Shown here: positions 22,150 through 31,544 of the stretch, piece after piece
Numbering within the stretch: position 1 is the first letter of the stretch
How the letters are laid out: the number at the start of each line of letters is the position of its first letter
IMG/VR virus record: IMGVR_UViG_2703718832_000006
Direction: 5' to 3' (one strand)
Source: a virus
Lineage: Duplodnaviria; Heunggongvirae; Uroviricota; Caudoviricetes
DNA: 36,592 nt
Notes under the pieces: model-generated
Told to the model about the DNA's origin: nothing
The model's input: the letters and a program-made list of their open reading frames with translations, nothing else
Database searches by the model: none
Program-made: the position numbers and the translations under genes

Positions 22150-23916
22150 ATGAACACCACACTGACACCCGCAGATCTCGATCCCCGTCGGCAGGCCATG
22201 CTGCTGTACTTTCAGGGATACCGCGTAGCCCGCATTGCTGAAATGCTGGGCGAGAAAGTTGCAACCGTTCACAGCTGGAAAAAACGCGACAAGTGGGGTG
22301 ACTATGGGCCGCTGGATCAGATGCAGCTCACCACCGCCGCACGCTACTGCCAGCTCATTATGAAGGAGCACAAAGAAGGGAAAGATTTCAAAGAGATTGA
22401 CCTGCTGGCGCGCCAGTCTGAGCGCCACGCGCGGATCGGCAAGTTTAACAATGGCGGCAACGAAGCCGACTTAAACCCTAACGTCACCAACCGCAATAAA
22501 GGCCCACGCCGTCAGCCGGAAAAGAATGTTTTCACCGATGAGCAGATTGAGAAGCTGGAAGAAATCTTCCATTCCTCCATGTTCAACTACCAGCGCCACT
22601 GGTGGGAAGCCGGAAAAACCAACCGCATCCGCAACCTGCTGAAGTCACGCCAGATCGGCGCGACCTTCTATTTTGCCCGTGAAGCCCTGATTGACGCCCT
22701 GCTTACCGGACGTAACCAGATTTTCCTTTCTGCCAGTAAGGCTCAGGCCCACGTCTTTAAACAATACATCATCGACTTCGCCAAAGAAGTCGAGGTGGAG
22801 CTAAAAGGCGATCCGATGGTGCTTCCTAACGGAGCCACGCTTTACTTCCTCGGCACCAATGCCCGCACGGCCCAGAGTTATCACGGCAACCTGTATCTGG
22901 ATGAATATTTCTGGATACCGAAATTCCAGGAGCTGCGCAAAGTGGCTTCCGGGATGGCTATTCACAAAAAATGGCGACAAACCTATTTTTCCACGCCATC
23001 CAGCCTGACCCACAGTGCTTATCCGTTCTGGTCCGGTGCGCTGTTCAACCGTGGACGCAACAAAGCTGACAAGGTGGACATCGACCTGTCCCACAGCAAT
23101 TTGGCCCCCGGCCTGCTGTGCGCAGACGGGCAATACCGCCAGATAGTCACCGTGGAAGATGCGGTGCGCGGCGGCTGTAACCTGTTCGACCTCGACCAGC
23201 TACGCATGGAGTACAGCCCGGACGAATACCAGAACCTGCTGATGTGCGAGTTCGTGGACGATCTCGCGTCCGTGTTCCCGCTCAGCGAACTGCAGGCGTG
23301 CATGGTGGACAGCTGGGAAGTCTGGACCGACTTTCATGCACTGGCCCTGCGCCCGTTTGGCTGGCGCGAAGTGTGGATCGGTTATGACCCGGCAAAAGGT
23401 ACGCAGAACGGCGACAGTGCCGGATGCGTGGTGGTGGCTCCGCCAGCCGTGCCGGGTGGTAAGTTCCGCATTCTTGAGCGTCACCAGTGGCGCGGGATGG
23501 ACTTCCGCGCCCAGGCTGACGCCATCAAAAAACTCACCGAACAGTACAACGTGACCTATATCGGTATCGACTCAACCGGCGTTGGTCACGGGGTTTATGA
23601 GAACGTGAAAGCGTTCTTTCCTGCCGTCCGGGAGTTTGTCTACAACCCCAATGTTAAAAACGCCCTGGTACTCAAGGCCTACGACATTATCAGCCACCGC
23701 CGTCTGGAGTTTGACGCCGGGCACACCGACATTGCGCTGTCATTCATGGCAATCCGTCGCGCCACCACCGCCAGCGGCAACCGCCCGACCTATGAAGCCA
23801 GCCGCAGCGAAGAAGCCAGCCACGCCGATCTGGCCTGGGCAACGATGCACGCACTGTTTAACGAACCGCTGCAGGGTGAATCCGCCAATACCAGCAATAT
23901 TGTGGAGATTTTTTGA
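22150..23916 (+). CDS. terminase large (ATPase) subunit P
   Basis: 588-aa ORF divergent from O; P2 gpP position and size. Confidence 0.9.
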   Translation: MNTTLTPADLDPRRQAMLLYFQGYRVARIAEMLGEKVATVHSWKKRDKWGDYGPLDQMQLTTAARYCQLIMKEHKEGKDFKEIDLLARQSERHARIGKFNNGGNEADLNPNVTNRNKGPRRQPEKNVFTDEQIEKLEEIFHSSMFNYQRHWWEAGKTNRIRNLLKSRQIGATFYFAREALIDALLTGRNQIFLSASKAQAHVFKQYIIDFAKEVEVELKGDPMVLPNGATLYFLGTNARTAQSYHGNLYLDEYFWIPKFQELRKVASGMAIHKKWRQTYFSTPSSLTHSAYPFWSGALFNRGRNKADKVDIDLSHSNLAPGLLCADGQYRQIVTVEDAVRGGCNLFDLDQLRMEYSPDEYQNLLMCEFVDDLASVFPLSELQACMVDSWEVWTDFHALALRPFGWREVWIGYDPAKGTQNGDSAGCVVVAPPAVPGGKFRILERHQWRGMDFRAQADAIKKLTEQYNVTYIGIDSTGVGHGVYENVKAFFPAVREFVYNPNVKNALVLKAYDIISHRRLEFDAGHTDIALSFMAIRRATTASGNRPTYEASRSEEASHADLAWATMHALFNEPLQGESANTSNIVEIF

Positions 23917-24959
23917 TGGGAAAGAGTAAGAAAAACCGCGCTGCGGCGACGAATCAGCTCAAGCATAAAAGCCAGACTTCAGCCGAAGCATTCAGCTTTG
24001 GCGATCCCGTTCCTGTTCTGGACCGCCGTGAACTGCTGGACTATGTGGAATGCGTACAGATGGACCGCTGGTATGAGCCGCCCGTCAGCTTTGACGGACT
24101 GGCACGAACCTTCCGCGCTGCCGTGCATCACAGCTCACCGATTGCAGTAAAATGCAACATTCTGACCAGTACCTACATCCCTCACCCGCTGCTCAGCCAG
24201 CAGGCTTTTTCACGTTTTGTGCAGGACTATCTGGTATTTGGTAACGCCTACCTGGAGAAACGCACGAACCGCTTCGGTGAAGTTATCGCCCTTGAGCCTG
24301 CTCTGGCAAAATATACCCGACGCGGGTTAGACCTGGATACCTACTGGTTTGTGCAATACGGTATGACAACCCAGCCGTATCAGTTCACGAAAGGCAGCAT
24401 TTTTCATCTGATGGAACCGGACATCAACCAGGAGATCTACGGCCTGCCAGGTTATCTTTCTGCCATTCCGTCAGCCCTGCTCAACGAGTCCGCCACGCTG
24501 TTCCGCCGGAAGTATTACATTAACGGCAGTCATGCAGGCTTCATCATGTACATGACCGATGCCGCGCAGAACCAGGAAGATGTGAACAACCTCCGCAATG
24601 CGATGAAAAGCGCCAAAGGTCCGGGCAACTTCCGCAACCTGTTTATGTACTCGCCTAACGGCAAAAAGGACGGGCTTCAGATTATCCCATTGTCAGAAGT
24701 TGCGGCGAAGGATGAGTTTCTGAATATCAAGAACGTGAGCCGTGATGACATGATGGCTGCGCACCGCGTGCCGCCGCAAATGATGGGGATTATGCCTAAT
24801 AATGTTGGAGGGTTTGGGGATGTGGAAAAAGCCGCGAAGGTTTTTGTCAGAAATGAGTTGGTTCCTTTGCAGAAAAGACTAGTTGAGCTAAACACCTGGA
24901 TAAATCAAAATATTGTGTCATTTAATGACTACATCCTTGACCAAGATAAGGGCATTTAA
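23913..24959 (+). CDS. portal (capsid vertex) protein Q
   Basis: 348-aa ORF overlapping the P stop by 4 nt; P2 gpQ position and size. Confidence 0.9.
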   Translation: MMGKSKKNRAAATNQLKHKSQTSAEAFSFGDPVPVLDRRELLDYVECVQMDRWYEPPVSFDGLARTFRAAVHHSSPIAVKCNILTSTYIPHPLLSQQAFSRFVQDYLVFGNAYLEKRTNRFGEVIALEPALAKYTRRGLDLDTYWFVQYGMTTQPYQFTKGSIFHLMEPDINQEIYGLPGYLSAIPSALLNESATLFRRKYYINGSHAGFIMYMTDAAQNQEDVNNLRNAMKSAKGPGNFRNLFMYSPNGKKDGLQIIPLSEVAAKDEFLNIKNVSRDDMMAAHRVPPQMMGIMPNNVGGFGDVEKAAKVFVRNELVPLQKRLVELNTWINQNIVSFNDYILDQDKGI

Positions 24960-25747
24960 TGCCCTTTTTTATCCTCATAAGCAACGTCATCGTATAATTT
25001 TAAGGCACCTAAATCATGTAATTGCTGCTTGAATTCCTTACTTAAACTAAACCCCTGAAGGAGAGAATATTTTTCAATAAATTTCTTGGCAGGCTTTCCT
25101 ACCGATGAAAAACCATTTAATAGCATCGCGCCAGATTCTATAGAAGATATTTGTGCTCTAACTAATTTCGCATACTTGGTTTTTTCTTTCTCAGTCAAAT
25201 AGTTAGAGTCATTGATATGTTTAAAAATATGGTAAATATTCCTGAAATAATGTCCCACATTCGCAAAATTGTCACCTTCCAGATAAACCATATTAACTGA
25301 AAGCTCTAACCTTTCATCCAAAGGAAGTGAATCATCCACAATATTAAGTAGGTTAAACTTCACTTCGGTAATGTATAATGAAAGAGCCTCCCGTCCTACA
25401 TACACTTTTCCATCTGAATACGTTGTTTTAATTTCTGATAAGTTATCTTTATGAAATCTTAGTAACTCAAATAACACAGACTCGAATGACTGAATAGATG
25501 ACTGCCTAGATGTAGAATATAGTGTGAAACAAACAAGCATGATAGAGATAAAGGCCAGAGCAGGATTCAGTACACCACCAATATAATCGCCAAACTGTCC
25601 CCATTTCTCTACGGAATCACTCCATGAATACATTCCAAATTTACAAACATAGCTAACAAACACTATCAGCATTAAAATAAAAGCCAAAAACAACAGTGAA
25701 TAAATAATGGCATAACGCTTAATATTTCGAAGAATGGCACCACACAT
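24956..25747 (-). CDS. membrane protein with two N-terminal transmembrane helices and a roughly 190-aa soluble C-terminal domain (cargo, function unknown)
   Basis: The track ORF 24956..25813 begins with a non-ATG codon and overlaps the upstream gene; the first ATG (Met 23, at 25747) has an AAGG about 10 nt upstream; two hydrophobic helices (AIIYSLLFLAFILMLIVFV and ALAFISIMLVCFTLY); AT-rich codon usage. Confidence 0.55.
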   Translation of the reverse strand: MCGAILRNIKRYAIIYSLLFLAFILMLIVFVSYVCKFGMYSWSDSVEKWGQFGDYIGGVLNPALAFISIMLVCFTLYSTSRQSSIQSFESVLFELLRFHKDNLSEIKTTYSDGKVYVGREALSLYITEVKFNLLNIVDDSLPLDERLELSVNMVYLEGDNFANVGHYFRNIYHIFKHINDSNYLTEKEKTKYAKLVRAQISSIESGAMLLNGFSSVGKPAKKFIEKYSLLQGFSLSKEFKQQLHDLGALKLYDDVAYEDKKGH

Positions 25748-25758
25748 CTCACAATACC

Positions 25759-26136
25759 TTATATATAATCCATATTTAAATCTATTGTATAAATACCTTT
25801 CCTCGCCACACAAGGAATAGATTTCTTTAAAATTCTAACATTTTTAATTTCCCACACATAATAACCTGGAGACCAAGGCTTATTAAGAGTTGTTTCTTGG
25901 TTTTGTTTTAAGTAATCCTCATATGACCAATTTCTAACTGAAACAAAATCGACAATAGCCATAGCCACCCCATGATCTATATCGCTTTGATTTTTAAGAT
26001 ATTTATCATTCTGAACAAGAATGACGTTTTTTAATGGTATCGTTTCAGGATACCACGACCGTATTTCGATAGATTTAGAACCATTTATAATATTTTCTAC
26101 CGCTGGAGTCAAAATCGATATAGCTTGAAACTTCAT
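25759..26136 (-). CDS. ASCH-domain protein (PUA-like fold)
   Basis: 125-aa ORF with the N-terminal GxKxxExR signature of ASCH domains (GSKSIEIR). Confidence 0.6.
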   Translation of the reverse strand: MKFQAISILTPAVENIINGSKSIEIRSWYPETIPLKNVILVQNDKYLKNQSDIDHGVAMAIVDFVSVRNWSYEDYLKQNQETTLNKPWSPGYYVWEIKNVRILKKSIPCVARKGIYTIDLNMDYI

Positions 26137-26201
26137 GCTCTATCCTCTACTATGCTAAGGCTATAACATTCTAACATAAATAAATAAACGGAGGTAATAC
26201 T

Positions 26202-26747
26202 ATGTTAATTTTCATAGCAGGTGTTCATGGTGTAGGCAAAGGTTACTTGTGTTCATTTGCAAAAGATGATTTCGGGGTAACTCATGTAAGCGCAAGCGAA
26301 CTTATAAAAAATAATTCTAATATTAAATTTGATAACAGTAAGTTAACGGCCACACCTGATAAAAACCAATCAATATTACTTACGGCACTTAATGCATTAA
26401 AGTTAAAGGTATCCAATATTTTATTGGATGGTCATTTTACCTTAATAAATAAAAATGGAGATATTGAAGTTCTCAAGCAAGAAGTATTTGAGGAAATGGG
26501 GCTAGATGGAGTAATTTTAGTTGAGGAGTCTCCCGATACAATTAGAGAACGAATAATGAAACGAGATGGGAGTGATATTACTTATGATTTAAATAAGCTG
26601 ATGGAAGCTGAAAGAGAAAACGCAAAATATGTTACAAATAAAATCAATGTACCATTAATTATCTTAGAATCCCCAACAACAAACGATTTATCTATTGCCC
26701 TAGAAAAACTGGGCATGGTTAAGAAACATGCCCAGACAACATTATAA
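26202..26747 (+). CDS. small P-loop NTPase, kinase-like
   Basis: 181-aa ORF with a Walker A-like loop at the N-terminus (IFIAGVHGVGKGYL) and a hydrophobic-strand aspartate (ILLDGHF); GGAGG RBS before the ATG. Confidence 0.65.
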   Translation: MLIFIAGVHGVGKGYLCSFAKDDFGVTHVSASELIKNNSNIKFDNSKLTATPDKNQSILLTALNALKLKVSNILLDGHFTLINKNGDIEVLKQEVFEEMGLDGVILVEESPDTIRERIMKRDGSDITYDLNKLMEAERENAKYVTNKINVPLIILESPTTNDLSIALEKLGMVKKHAQTTL

Positions 26748-27134
26748 ATAACGATAAGACTGTGGGGCGACGCCGCCGGGAATCAACTCATTTAAGTCGA
26801 CAGGGAATTTATATCTTTTAGGGCTTTTGATGGAAATAGCAAAAGCCTTTTCTCTTTGGTGGAAATAATCTTTAAAAAAAGAATGTGTAATTCCTGCATG
26901 AGCTTTCGTTTTATCCCACAATTCTGAAGGGGATAGAGCAAGAATATCTCCTACTTTAAATTCACCTATTACTTTGCCAACCGGCATCGTTGCGTAAATA
27001 ACTATCGTATCAACATTTTTATTTCTAAAAATATTTTTCCGAAACTCATATTTTTTTTTACCAGAAAGTATACTCTCTGCATACTCTGGCTTAATCGATA
27101 ATAAAACTTTCATCAACACCTCCCTGTAAGACAA
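26742..27134 (-). CDS. ASCH-domain protein (PUA-like fold)
   Basis: 130-aa ORF with the ASCH GxKxxExR signature (SGKKKYEFR); the start may be Met 8 (27113); its stop overlaps the convergent kinase stop by 6 nt. Confidence 0.6.
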   Translation of the reverse strand: MSYREVLMKVLLSIKPEYAESILSGKKKYEFRKNIFRNKNVDTIVIYATMPVGKVIGEFKVGDILALSPSELWDKTKAHAGITHSFFKDYFHQREKAFAISIKSPKRYKFPVDLNELIPGGVAPQSYRYL

Positions 27135-27672
27135 TCTGCTTAAATGCTGAATCAGTTAGTGGTAAAAAACCCCAATAATCACTATTGGTATAACCTGTAA
27201 TATTCATGATTTCATCACGAATAACTCTTTTTTCCAAAGGGAAATTATAAGTAAACCGTATAATTATCGGATAATTTTTTTTCATATATAGAAGCTGTAA
27301 CTCATCTTCATCAAAAACGCTATAAGGTTCACAGTAATTCTTAAATTCCTCATAAGTTAAGAAATCGTGAATATCTTTAATTTCCTGAACCACACACACT
27401 GAAGTTGCAACAGATCTAAACCGAGCTGGACCTTGTCCATCTGAAGTACGATAAATAAGCAAATTATCTCCAGGCTTTAGGCTGGCTACCCCATGCATTT
27501 TTGTTAAGTATACTTTTTCAATACTGTTGGTATGTGATATATCAGCGATGATACCAGCACTCTCATTGTGGAGTTTTGACTCAGGGAAAAGACGTGTATG
27601 CCATGCAGGATAAATACTTAATAAATAATTTCTCCCCTGCAATTTGACTAAGGGATAATTAGCATAGCTCAT
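27091..27672 (-). CDS. hypothetical protein (193 aa), middle gene of the GNAT-ASCH operon
   Basis: ORF packed between the GNAT and ASCH genes with a 3-nt gap upstream and an overlap downstream; no motif I can assign with confidence. Confidence 0.5.
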   Translation of the reverse strand: MSYANYPLVKLQGRNYLLSIYPAWHTRLFPESKLHNESAGIIADISHTNSIEKVYLTKMHGVASLKPGDNLLIYRTSDGQGPARFRSVATSVCVVQEIKDIHDFLTYEEFKNYCEPYSVFDEDELQLLYMKKNYPIIIRFTYNFPLEKRVIRDEIMNITGYTNSDYWGFLPLTDSAFKQIVLQGGVDESFIID

Positions 27673-27675
27673 TTT

Positions 27676-28146
27676 TTACTCCTTCCATACCAAGTTTTTA
27701 AAGTATACACCTTCTTGCCCATTAATCGTAGAAAGATTTTTCCTCGCCTTTAAAACAAAACCATATTTAGTTAATAAGCGAATTAATCCTGAATGCTTAT
27801 CAAATATAGTAACATATACTTCTTTTAGTTTGTTTCTCATAGCAAATTGAAACATAATTCTAATAAAACGCTCTCCAAGTTTGGTTCCATGAGCATCGAT
27901 TTTAAATGTGCCAAGCTTTACTCGCTTCATCTTTGGAAACGTTGGAGTCATATCACTCAACTCTTCATCTTCTATTTTCAAATAGAGAAAACCATCGATT
28001 TCACCTAATTCATTACGTGATACAAACGCCTTATTTTTACCTTTTGAGAGAAACCAAACATCAAATCCTTCATAATCAGCTCTTAGGCTGTTAAAAAACG
28101 GATCTTTTAAATCGATATCACTAAAAAATTTTTCCTCGATAGACAT
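27676..28146 (-). CDS. GNAT-family N-acetyltransferase-like protein
   Basis: 156-aa ORF with a GNAT-like core pattern (HGTKLGERFIRIMFQFA ... LIRLLTKYGF); fold assignment is by eye only. Confidence 0.5.
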   Translation of the reverse strand: MSIEEKFFSDIDLKDPFFNSLRADYEGFDVWFLSKGKNKAFVSRNELGEIDGFLYLKIEDEELSDMTPTFPKMKRVKLGTFKIDAHGTKLGERFIRIMFQFAMRNKLKEVYVTIFDKHSGLIRLLTKYGFVLKARKNLSTINGQEGVYFKNLVWKE

Positions 28147-28320
28147 CCAGTTCCTCTTCTAATGGCAGCGAGCAAGTGACCTTATCCTTACATGTTAATA
28201 GATAACCACAGCTGTAGGCAATTACATACATTAAGCTCTATCAAACAACGAGCAAACTTAAGCACCGCTACAACTCAACCTAGCTGATGCCTGTTTTGAC
28301 GATTACCCTATCAGCGCGCG

Positions 28321-29129: not shown

Positions 29130-31544
29130 TTAATACAGGTTCCGCCACTTATCATCTTCCTGCAAACGCTGGTTCCGATAGAAGATACGCAGGCCTGCTC
29201 CTGACGGAATGCTGCCGCCGCGAAGGAGTAAATCGACTTCTTTCTCGCTGCCATCAAATCCTCTGGACTTCAGTTCATAGACGAGCTGCTGTCGTTGATG
29301 GTCTGTAATTCGCTGTTTGTAGTCTCTACGCCGTTTCGGTTTCACCAGGCGTAACCTTACAGCCAGTTCCCGGCGCTCTTTTTTGTTCATACTGTGCAGG
29401 TAATCGTGCAACTCCTTGTCATCCATACGGGTGATATCCGTTCTGGTATCCCCATCAGCTGATTTGTCTTTCCCTTGTTGGTACAAATTTTCAGCAAGGG
29501 GACAGTTATTGCCACGAGTCCAAGGGGCGCAAGCGCCCTGGTCGGCTGCCGCCTCCTGAACGTCAACGGCCTTACGAACCATTTTCCACTTCACTGCATG
29601 AGTGCAAATCTTGCCCTGTACAATGGGTGACCAGATGCCATAAATACGAATACCGTGATCGCCATAAGCAGTCGGCTCTTCGTTAATTTCATAAGCTGTT
29701 CTGATAAGGTGATATTTGCGGGGAACCAGTACGCCGCCCTGCTTCATGATGTAGGTGGCAAAACAACCAGCATCAGCAGCAGCCAGGATGGCATCAAGGC
29801 GCGGGTTATCCAGTACCGGCGCACCTGCTTTTTTGTCCCCCTGTTGCCTTGCCGCCTGACCAGCCAGCAATCGCAGTTCACGGTAAGCCTGACGCCCCGG
29901 AATGCCAAAGAAGCGGAATTGCTGAACACGATGCAGAGACGCCCAGGCATTAACGTATTCAGCATTATCACGCAGGGATTTACCCGTTTCCTTGCTGATC
30001 TCGCCAGCCAGACCACGCCCGTCAATGTTCTTACTGATGTATTTCGCGATGTAGCTTGTCGGTGTTCCTTTGCGTGGGTTTATCAGCTCAGATTTAAAGC
30101 GTGGACCAGTGTTATTACCCAGTTCCTCGCGGTCTTCACGGATGGCAAACTTACGCAACAATGCAGTAATGGCGCGGCGGTCTTTTTTGCGCATGAAACA
30201 CATGAGATGCCAGTGCACAGTACCGTCATGGTGCGGCTCAGCCACCCGCACGCCATACCAGCGCAACCCGGCTTTGTGCATAGCCTTACGAAATGCAGCA
30301 AACATGCCGACCAGATAATCGCTGCTTTGTCTTACCGTCGCATTTGTCCAGGTCGGGTTGGGTCTGCCGTTGTTGAGCGTGGAATGGAAACGTGACGGAC
30401 AGGTGATAGTGTAGAAAACGGCGCAGTCACCACGCATTTCTGCGATAAGCTCCAGACCTTTAACACAGGCCATCATCTCATTGCGGCGATGTGCCGGGTT
30501 GCTGCTGCTGGCGTTTACCACATCTTCCATATCCAGCGTGTCGCCGTCTTCGTTCACCAGTTCATGAGAACGGAAAAACTCCAGCGACTTACGGCGCTGC
30601 TCACGTTTATGCGTCACGGCTTCATAGCTGACATAGGGAGATGCTTTTTTGCTGACCAGGCAGACAGCACGCAACTGCTCTTCCCGCCATTCGCAACGCA
30701 TCTTCCACAATTTTCGATACCACCAGTCGGCGCAAAGCATACGTGCCAGCGAACCCGGTATGAGTTCATAGGGCACGGGTTTGCGGCGGTTTCTTTTCCG
30801 GCGGAGTTGCTCAAACGCAGGCGGGATAACATCCAGTCGCAGGGTTTCCGCTGCCACCTTTTCCCATGTCTTGCGGATTTCTTCTGGCTTAACGTCATCG
30901 GTGGCATATAAATCGCCACAAGCGGCATCAAGGCACATGCTCATATGCGCAGCTACCAGGGTGGACAGGCGTTTTACCTGATCCTGACTCATTTCAGGCA
31001 GGATCAGCAGGCCCTCAAGCCCTTGATGGCTTGCCATAAAACGGAAAGAAGCGGATAGCTGACTGTCGCGTACACAATCCAGTCGCTCCAGACATGGCTT
31101 AATCGTCTCACGCAAATAGCGGGAATAAGCCTTTGGCCTGCCCAGGCTGCTGAAGTATTCGATACGTTGCATCAGCGGCTTGCTGATGTGGGTAGGCTGG
31201 GCGCTGACATCTGCCAGAATGACCATGTCCGGGTTAAAAAGCTGCTGCTCATGCGCAAGCTTTGCGCGGCTAATGAGCTTATCCTGCTCCATTTCGCGCT
31301 GGACAGGATCACGGGATTCATTAAAGAAATAACGCTCCCAGACCTGCTCACTCAGTGCCTCGCGGCGCAGTTGTTCCTGCTCGTTATCGGCAGCATACAG
31401 AGTGATCAGGTTTGAAAGTGCAGACTCCGGCGCAAATTCCGCCGGGTCCAGATAAGGGTTAATGGCCTTTTTCGGGCCGTTCCATGAAAATGATGCAGCG
31501 GCCTCGTTAAAGCCGCTAGAGTTGCTCATATCGTCATGACTCAT
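29130..31544 (-). CDS. replication initiation protein A (rolling-circle nicking protein)
   Basis: 804-aa ORF in the position of P2/186 gene A; contains a tyrosine pair (YIAKYI) resembling the rolling-circle initiator active site. Confidence 0.88.

Follow-up and report, generated by a model that had tools for sequence, protein, structure and literature searches.

Does a run of three closely packed prophage genes encode three proteins of separate origin, or a known system in rearranged form? This question is raised by the IMG/VR virus record IMGVR_UViG_2703718832_000006, a stretch of 36,592 nucleotides (nt; hereafter the window), which is an Escherichia coli P2-like prophage. It carries three minus-strand open reading frames (ORFs), ORF1 to ORF3, with a 3-nt gap between the first and second and a 23-nt overlap between the second and third (Table 1). 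The original prediction had recognised this packing, which was present at the positions given, and had read the three genes as separate proteins: a GNAT acetyltransferase, a 193-amino-acid (aa) middle protein and an ASCH protein that might write and erase an acetyl mark. Separate origin did not hold: the middle gene encodes a PUA-like reader domain, which usually forms one chain with the GNAT domain. Profile matches place the locus almost certainly in the GNAT-EVE + ASCH family, listed by PADLOC as candidate PDC-M11. The system itself is known and the split variant found here is new.

A split GNAT-reader gene

ORF1 and ORF2 share one reading frame, which runs V-W-K-E-TAA-AAA-ATG-S-Y-A-N-Y-P across the gap. 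When compared with the PADLOC model PDC-M11A (PDLC04419, 357 positions), ORF1 covered positions 11-160 (E 1e-58) and ORF2 positions 166-357 (E 6e-69), the match being divided over two ORFs instead of lying on a single fused polypeptide. Judged from these sequence matches, ORF1 and ORF2 are two halves of one normally fused protein of approximately 350 aa and, since an in-frame TAA divides this A protein, the locus was classed as a variant of PDC-M11. In the family alignment, the TAA fell in a short variable interdomain linker between two conserved blocks, and every invariant family residue was kept in the window copy. In PHROGs, the two halves have families of their own, phrog_13728 and phrog_30943, in addition to the fused phrog_6345.

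The assignment of the N-terminal half to the GNAT superfamily, as proposed in the original prediction, was borne out at the level of the fold. The family profile reached PaiA at E 6.7e-5, spanning GNAT motifs A and B, and the half showed the GNAT alpha/beta fold. Structure prediction, which had been proposed as a check, was carried out with AlphaFold (AF2) on a 65%-identical fused homologue and gave a predicted local distance difference test (pLDDT) score of 88 and a predicted template modelling (pTM) score of 0.85; the ASCH protein reached a pLDDT of 95. The high pTM of the fused model suggests that a fixed interface could hold the two halves together. The invariant segment H-G-T-K/R-L/M-G-E-R-F aligned to Q-K-H-G-L-G-K of PaiA, where motif A, which binds the pyrophosphate of acetyl-CoA, is expected in the form R/Q-x-x-G-x-G/A. 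Acyl-CoA-dependent acyl transfer would be the predicted activity of the N half.

The 156-aa and 193-aa proteins were identified via PADLOC, PHROGs, profiles and structure. NCBIfam scans of both returned no usable match (the PaiA model scored 17.7 bits on the 156-aa half, vs. a cutoff of 250), the EVE model of Pfam (PF01878) did not match the 193-aa half, and PF00583 was found on one of the 120 homologues listed. The C-terminal domain is devoid of the GxKxxExR motif. Since hhalign detected no sequence relationship between this reader domain and the ASCH partner, the two are not detectable paralogues.

We then considered whether the split is maintained or is a sign of decay. At least 1,953 homologues were found in many phyla, nearly all of them single chains of 349-351 aa with 45-65% identity, and the A gene was fused in 73 of the 80 genome loci that were compared (loci are denoted below by L numbers). 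The prevalence of single chains among the homologues, together with the in-frame arrangement of ORF1 and ORF2 with one codon between stop and ATG, speaks for a decaying pseudogene, in which the TAA would be a nonsense mutation in a fused GNAT-EVE gene and the 193-aa ORF an untranslated remnant. Isolated damaged copies do exist: that of a Granulicella metagenome-assembled genome (L018, 1157-2239) has an in-frame TAG in the same linker with no restart codon, and that of an Arcobacteraceae member (L067, 7995-9047) is fragmented and degraded. Both look like true pseudogenes or assembly errors, unlike the maintained split.

However, the split was not confined to the window. A clean split was present in five P2-like prophages of Enterobacterales (Kosakonia, Pantoea, strain LSJC7, Providencia and Erwinia) and in a further locus of Dickeya chrysanthemi (L087), so that equivalent junctions occur in six other lineages (L002, L003, L004, L005, L007 and L087). 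With the window copy, the seven split lineages share 55-79% amino-acid identity. Their junctions vary: the stop is TAA or TGA, the start is ATG or GTG, and the spacer measures 0, 2 or 3 nt. At every one of them a GGAG(A)-like sequence lies inside the W-K/R-E/D codons. For both halves as well as for the ASCH gene, comparison of the split lineages gave a proportion of synonymous differences (pS) of 0.7-0.97, i.e., saturated, against 0.14-0.32 for nonsynonymous differences (pN). In a neighbour-joining tree, five split copies formed one clade and the sixth copy included was placed among fused relatives; therefore, the state has changed at least once or twice.

Because the junctions differ among lineages and all parts are under purifying selection, the sequences point to a maintained gene fission, not a pseudogene, and the fission is very probably a functional split. 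The pseudogene reading of the window copy was rejected as highly improbable: a stop and a start codon with a Shine-Dalgarno (SD)-like sequence recur in seven lineages with different stops and spacers, pN is low in both halves at saturated synonymous sites, and the stop lies exactly in the variable linker of a copy that has lost no invariant residue. Readthrough or recoding that would restore the fused protein was also rejected. Stop contexts are not conserved and, since the 2-nt spacer of the Dickeya chrysanthemi junction is out of frame, readthrough cannot be what the arrangement is for. Termination-reinitiation coupling probably yields both halves, with the SD sequence in the last codons, followed by the stop and the ATG. 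Translational coupling of the genes, part of the original prediction, was supported.

The ASCH partner and the known relatives of the pair

The last gene had been predicted to encode a 130-aa ASCH protein carrying GxKxxExR. Its ASCH identity was confirmed, with 36.9 bits for Pfam PF04266 (cutoff 21.2) and E 2e-49 for PADLOC PDC-M11B, but the length was not: the start is most likely the ATG at 27113, giving 123 aa, because a GGAGG lies 5 nt upstream and because the RefSeq start and the starts of homologues agree with it. All ASCH homologues begin MKVLLSIKPE. Residues G18, K20, E23 and R25 of the motif were invariant in 45 homologues, as were Y40 and P117-Q118-S119. The ASCH gene was linked to the GNAT-reader gene in 78 of the 80 loci, the other two being cut by contig ends; because of this linkage, the packing of the genes is not due to chance. 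In 73 of the 80 it lay immediately downstream and overlapping.

The closest characterised comparator was not YqfB, on which the original prediction had drawn, but ZmASCH (ZMO0922, PDB 5GUQ/5GUS), reached by the profile at E 6e-18. YqfB shares the ASCH fold and the conserved Lys in the octapeptide motif; however, it has Thr in this motif (GKTR) and acts on free nucleosides, whereas the 123-aa protein has Glu23 (GKER) and falls in the ZmASCH branch. ZmASCH keeps GxKxxExR, its Tyr47 and Ser128 correspond to the YAT tyrosine and the C-terminal PQS serine of the 123-aa protein, and it matches PDC-M11B itself (E 3e-29). By these criteria of sequence, the ASCH partner is a ZmASCH-type relative with an intact Lys/Glu catalytic dyad. 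In a recent preprint, 19 of 19 ASCH proteins tested, ZmASCH among them, removed N4-acetylcytidine (ac4C) from E. coli tRNA in vitro, and this removal worked through the Lys and Glu of the motif (Statkeviciute et al. 2026). The activities reported for ZmASCH, i.e., cleavage of single-stranded RNA (ssRNA) and removal of tRNA ac4C, the latter in vitro only, are candidate activities of the 123-aa protein.

The ZmASCH gene, in contrast with that of the window, is not beside a GNAT-EVE gene. Its membership in a GNAT-EVE operon was considered and rejected, as the 375-aa upstream neighbour showed neither a PADLOC match nor similarity to the family profile. Neither Pfam nor PADLOC models matched this 375-aa protein (Zymomonas mobilis, L083, 4825-5952); its position immediately upstream of ZMO0922 is conserved, and it may be a functional partner of ZmASCH. 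As a separate observation, the ASCH protein of the window (26745-27113, minus strand) matched NCBIfam NF008917 at E 4e-12. This model is named '50S ribosomal protein L22/unknown domain fusion protein' and the match lies in its non-ribosomal C-terminal domain (positions 191-298), which hints that the ASCH branch might work at the ribosome.

The pairing of GNAT with ASCH had been thought unusual; it is, however, widespread and already described (Bell, Wolf & Koonin 2020, PMC7641849; PADLOC PDC-M11). Bell et al. (PMC7641849) described a GNAT-EVE fusion with ASCH in almost all operons and often AAA_17, common in prophages of beta- and gamma-proteobacteria, with a PIN RNase added in related architectures. 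They suggested that the modules work on a toxin-antitoxin principle and may act on aminoacyl-tRNA, and stated that none of these modules had been characterised. They credit Iyer et al. 2013 (NAR) with the prediction that a DNA base is acetylated. The locus in the window and this family share the order of GNAT and then PUA-like reader, the overlapping downstream ASCH gene, the optional AAA_17 gene and residence in gamma-proteobacterial prophages, and they differ in that the GNAT and reader domains are separate polypeptides at the locus. Searches of the accessible literature yielded no published biochemical function or anti-phage phenotype for the family, the status of which in PADLOC is only 'candidate'.

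A second relative is Escherichia phage PhiR47_2 (PV340567.1; L086, 3506-4934), in which a 2025 GenBank annotation names a 'GevT toxin' of 357 aa and a 'GevA antitoxin' of 125 aa. The pair lies directly downstream of cI in this lambdoid phage record, the position that rexAB (rexA, rexB) has in lambda. In phmmer comparisons, the N half matched GevT at 1e-36 and the C half at 2e-59, and the ASCH protein matched GevA at 2e-45. Both loci have the A-then-B order, the 23-nt overlap and a lysogen-expressed moron position in a temperate phage, and the reader halves are approximately 49% identical; by contrast, GevT is a single 357-aa chain, its gene follows cI instead of lying in the P2 hotspot, and it is not accompanied by a kinase gene. 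Of 5,426 complete E. coli genomes, 275 (about 5%), including O157:H7 strains, carry the lambdoid version at ≥99% identity and 2 carry the fused P2-hotspot version.

In a transposon sequencing (Tn-seq) preprint on Dickeya dadantii 3937, both the prophage ASCH gene Dda3937_01763 and Dda3937_01765 (cI) were essential, and Dda3937_01764 ('Acetyltransferase, GNAT family'), adjacent to the ASCH gene, was assigned to the growth-defect class. The order of Dda3937_01763-01765 is the gene order of PhiR47_2. Although the genes were matched by annotation and order only, the essentiality of the ASCH gene is as expected of an antitoxin and lends independent support to this role.

The pair was also compared with the GNAT/ribbon-helix-helix (RHH) type II systems TacAT, AtaRT, KacAT and ItaRT. 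Common to both are a small GNAT toxin, a partner that is translated together with the toxin and neutralises it, and, at the locus as a proposal of Bell et al., aminoacyl-tRNA as a candidate substrate. The locus differs from them in having the toxin gene first, an extra PUA-like reader and an ASCH partner.

Neighbouring genes and genomic setting

Table 1. Positions of the split gene pair, its junction and the surrounding genes in the window
Feature	Position	Strand	Length	Remarks
Portal gene gpQ	23913-24959			One side of island
putAbiC-like membrane protein	24956-25747	-	263 aa	Neighbouring cargo or possible effector
Second ASCH-like protein	25759-26136	-	125 aa	Motif GSKSIEIR
AAA_17 / nucleoside monophosphate (NMP)-kinase-like P-loop protein	26202-26747	+	181 aa	Convergent with ASCH gene
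ORF3, ASCH protein	27134/27113-26742 (26742-27113)	-	123 aa	Two candidate starts, end at 26742; GevA / PDC-M11B homologue, putative antitoxin or eraser
ORF2, C half of split toxin gene	27672-27091	-	193 aa	PUA-like (EVE/ASCH-fold) beta-barrel reader domain
Fission junction	27670-27684	-		Read directly from sequence
SD sequence AAGGAG	27684-27679	-		Inside codons K-E, 6 nt before ATG
TAA stop of ORF1	27678-27676	-
AAA spacer codon	27675-27673	-
ATG start of ORF2	27672-27670	-
ORF1, N half of split toxin gene	28146-27676	-	156 aa	GNAT acetyltransferase domain, equivalent to N-terminal domain of GevT / PDC-M11A
gpA replication endonuclease	29130-31544			Other side of island, along with DinI-like gene

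The kinase-like protein matched Pfam AAA_17 (E 3e-18) and the 'thymidylate kinase' family phrog_761 (E 1.5e-19), and its nearest solved relatives were adenylate kinase 1 and UMP/CMP kinase (E 4e-6). A kinase homologue, counted if no more than about 400 nt away from the pair or, as in L073, immediately next to an ASCH gene that is displaced, was found in several orientations in 16 of the 80 loci; because these loci belong to unrelated phyla, the gene is a facultative, recurrent accessory component. The ends of the ASCH gene (minus strand) and the kinase gene (plus strand) have in common the palindrome TTATAA (26742-26747), which supplies the last sense codon and the stop of each. Since no terminator lies between them, their transcription must collide. 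On a 2.7-kb fragment of Enterococcus phage IME_EF3 (PQ520180.1, 882-2234), a distant homologue of the reader half occurs together with a kinase homologue, which extends the kinase linkage to phages of Firmicutes.

The second ASCH-like gene is followed, 11 nt further on, by the putAbiC-like gene. The former product scored below the cutoff for Pfam ASCH (E 0.0017) and matched phrog_3193 at E 2e-33; the latter matched Pfam putAbiC at E 1.2e-18 and PADLOC AbiC at E 1e-5. The second ASCH-like gene accompanies the split module in L002, L005 and L007, the putAbiC-like gene is found in L002, L003 (broken), L005 and L007, and the two travel as a pair with the split module in the Kosakonia, Providencia and Erwinia prophages. 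In Dickeya chrysanthemi (L087), the second ASCH-like gene is present as well, there with no AbiC pair and in a different, integrase-adjacent context, and a more distant AbiC-like homologue lies directly upstream of the fused gene in L041 (Methylomicrobium). The two genes may extend the system or serve as its effector, or they may form an abortive-infection module of their own. Compared with PDC-M11, the clade of the locus differs in that the AAA_17 gene is inverted and the second ASCH and AbiC-like genes follow. The split toxin gene with the kinase and second ASCH gene attached is a new variant.

Together, these genes form a cargo island that fills the gpA-gpQ interval of the prophage, defined as a P2 defence hotspot by Rousset et al. 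2022. The G+C content of 24956-28200 was 33%, vs. 50-58% in the surroundings. Homologues occupy the equal gpA-gpQ position in L002-L005, L007 and L082, and 8 of the 5,426 complete E. coli genomes carry the cargo itself at ≥99.8% identity. A megablast search of the island against deposited phage genomes matched the flanking DinI region only; phage homologues of the module, in lambdoid coliphages, surfaced with tblastn, not at the DNA level. Rfam and tRNA scans of the island gave no matches. As the promoter scan yielded 7 sites, fewer than the 14.7 in shuffled controls, no promoter was assigned, and a P2 cos sequence had no match at up to 3 mismatches, so no claim is made about cos. Near the start of the window, a full-length gene for the small RNA RybB is present at 2700-2778 on the plus strand (Rfam RF00110, 105 bits); it marks host chromosome beside the prophage end.

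Proposed function, alternatives and meaning

A toxin-antitoxin or defence role of the module is likely. The hotspot location, the GevT/GevA annotation and the Dickeya Tn-seq results agree with the toxin-antitoxin or anti-phage role that had been predicted for the pair. Taken separately, a toxin/antitoxin relation between the split GNAT-reader and the ASCH protein is probable, an anti-phage role of the module is slightly favoured, and enzymatic erasing by the ASCH protein is somewhat less likely than not. As a whole, the explanation that we favour, with moderate confidence, is that the locus belongs to the GNAT-EVE + ASCH family, that its GevT-like toxin is split, that the ASCH protein is the neutraliser and that the module is carried as low-GC hotspot cargo.

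According to this proposal, the two halves would assemble into a GevT-like toxin, in which the reader domain would direct the GNAT active site to an amine linked to nucleic acid. The likeliest target would be RNA of the translation apparatus, either the N4 of cytidine in tRNA or the amino group of aminoacyl-tRNA, with cytosine of phage DNA being less likely. In uninfected lysogens, the toxin would be kept harmless by the ASCH protein, which would either occupy the substrate or hydrolyse the acetyl mark that the toxin sets. Infection by a phage would tip the balance, and translation or phage replication would be blocked. An RNA target is favoured because ZmASCH binds and cleaves ssRNA, because ASCH proteins strip ac4C from tRNA, and because of the PIN-RNase architectures and the likeness to NF008917. 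By analogy, acetyl write/erase chemistry is plausible, since ASCH proteins remove tRNA ac4C via Lys and Glu and the M11B protein keeps K20 and E23.

Several observations weigh against this explanation. GNAT motif A is atypical, as its alignment to PaiA requires a 2-residue insertion, and Pfam recognised neither the GNAT half nor the reader half (no usable match; for the GNAT half none at E≤1). The literature search returned no paper using the names GevT or GevA and no experimental paper on PDC-M11 or GNAT-EVE; therefore, the toxin/antitoxin label rests on the annotation of the depositor. Rousset et al. do not mention the GNAT-EVE + ASCH system, no anti-phage phenotype is known, and no experiment on the locus or on a sequence-verified homologue was found in the searchable literature. 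The link to the Dickeya genes comes from annotation and gene order, not from sequence, and the growth defect of the GNAT gene 01764 is not predicted for a simple toxin gene, although polarity on the ASCH gene could account for it. With regard to the ASCH partner, ZmASCH did not hydrolyse free ac4C (Statkeviciute et al. 2026) and has also been reported as an ssRNA nuclease that binds as well as cleaves its substrate. Further, since the ZmASCH gene lies beside an unrelated 375-aa gene, M11B-type ASCH proteins can act independently.

A more specific version of the proposal, that the locus is an immune switch based on reversible acetylation of nucleic acid, with a separate GNAT writer, a PUA-like reader acting in trans, an ASCH eraser of an ac4C-like mark and the kinase as accessory, appears rather unlikely. 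Among the rival explanations, one moves the writing, reading and erasing to DNA: the GNAT would acetylate a cytosine, modified or not, or another base in phage or prophage DNA, the PUA-like domain would read the base, the ASCH protein would remove the mark and the kinase would process nucleotide precursors, the purpose being either to restrict hypermodified phages or to shield the prophage from host restriction. Such a DNA-base target is possible by analogy, because modified phage DNA is the substrate of some proteins with the ASCH fold, e.g., BapA, which works on glucosyl-5hmC DNA in a system directed against T-even phages. Modified bases in DNA are bound by EVE and ASCH domains, the kinase of the window resembles (d)NMP kinases, and Bell et al. 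(PMC7641849) report an earlier prediction of DNA-base acetylation as well as the idea that GNAT-EVE shields phages from restriction-modification. However, the annotated flanks of the P2-like prophage hold no base-hypermodification pathway, the nearest characterised ASCH relative acts on RNA and the PIN-fused relatives point to RNA as well, and the essentiality of the Dickeya ASCH gene suggests self-toxicity over a neutral DNA mark. We consider this explanation improbable.

Equally improbable is a classical GNAT type II addiction module that takes no part in phage defence and only stabilises the prophage or cargo island, with the ASCH protein as a purely stoichiometric inhibitor or a transcriptional regulator. 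The depositor annotation 'toxin/antitoxin' and the essentiality of the ASCH gene in Tn-seq in the absence of phage are in line with it, as are the name 'predicted transcriptional regulator' that some sources give to the ASCH partner and the existence of helix-turn-helix-ASCH fusions. Against it, known GNAT toxins pair with RHH/DUF1778 antitoxins, while no island protein matched RHH/DUF1778 or toxins of the TacAT/AtaRT type in the Pfam and PADLOC scans. The ASCH motif retains its catalytic Lys, Glu and Arg without exception across phyla, which would not be required of a mere binder, and the module is found repeatedly at exclusion loci, i.e., the P2 gpA-gpQ hotspot and the site after cI in lambdoid phages.

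Comparative genomics has known the GNAT-EVE/ASCH operon since 2013, as Bell et al. (PMC7641849) recount. The operon is widespread, with at least 1,900 protein clusters in many phyla. The copy in the E. coli P2 prophage is a genetically tractable instance of it, in which evolution has already separated the catalytic and targeting domains. The natural split makes it easier to ask whether both halves are needed for toxicity, whether they form a complex, and whether the ASCH protein acts by catalysis through Lys20/Glu23 or by binding. If the ASCH protein did not erase a mark, the locus would be one more member of a catalogued candidate defence or toxin-antitoxin family; if it did erase an acetyl mark written by the GNAT, the ac4C-deacetylase activity of ASCH proteins would gain a biological role. 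Should the acetylation switch prove true, antiviral defence in bacteria would have its first writer-reader-eraser system based on acetylation, and the split would show that reader and writer need no covalent link.

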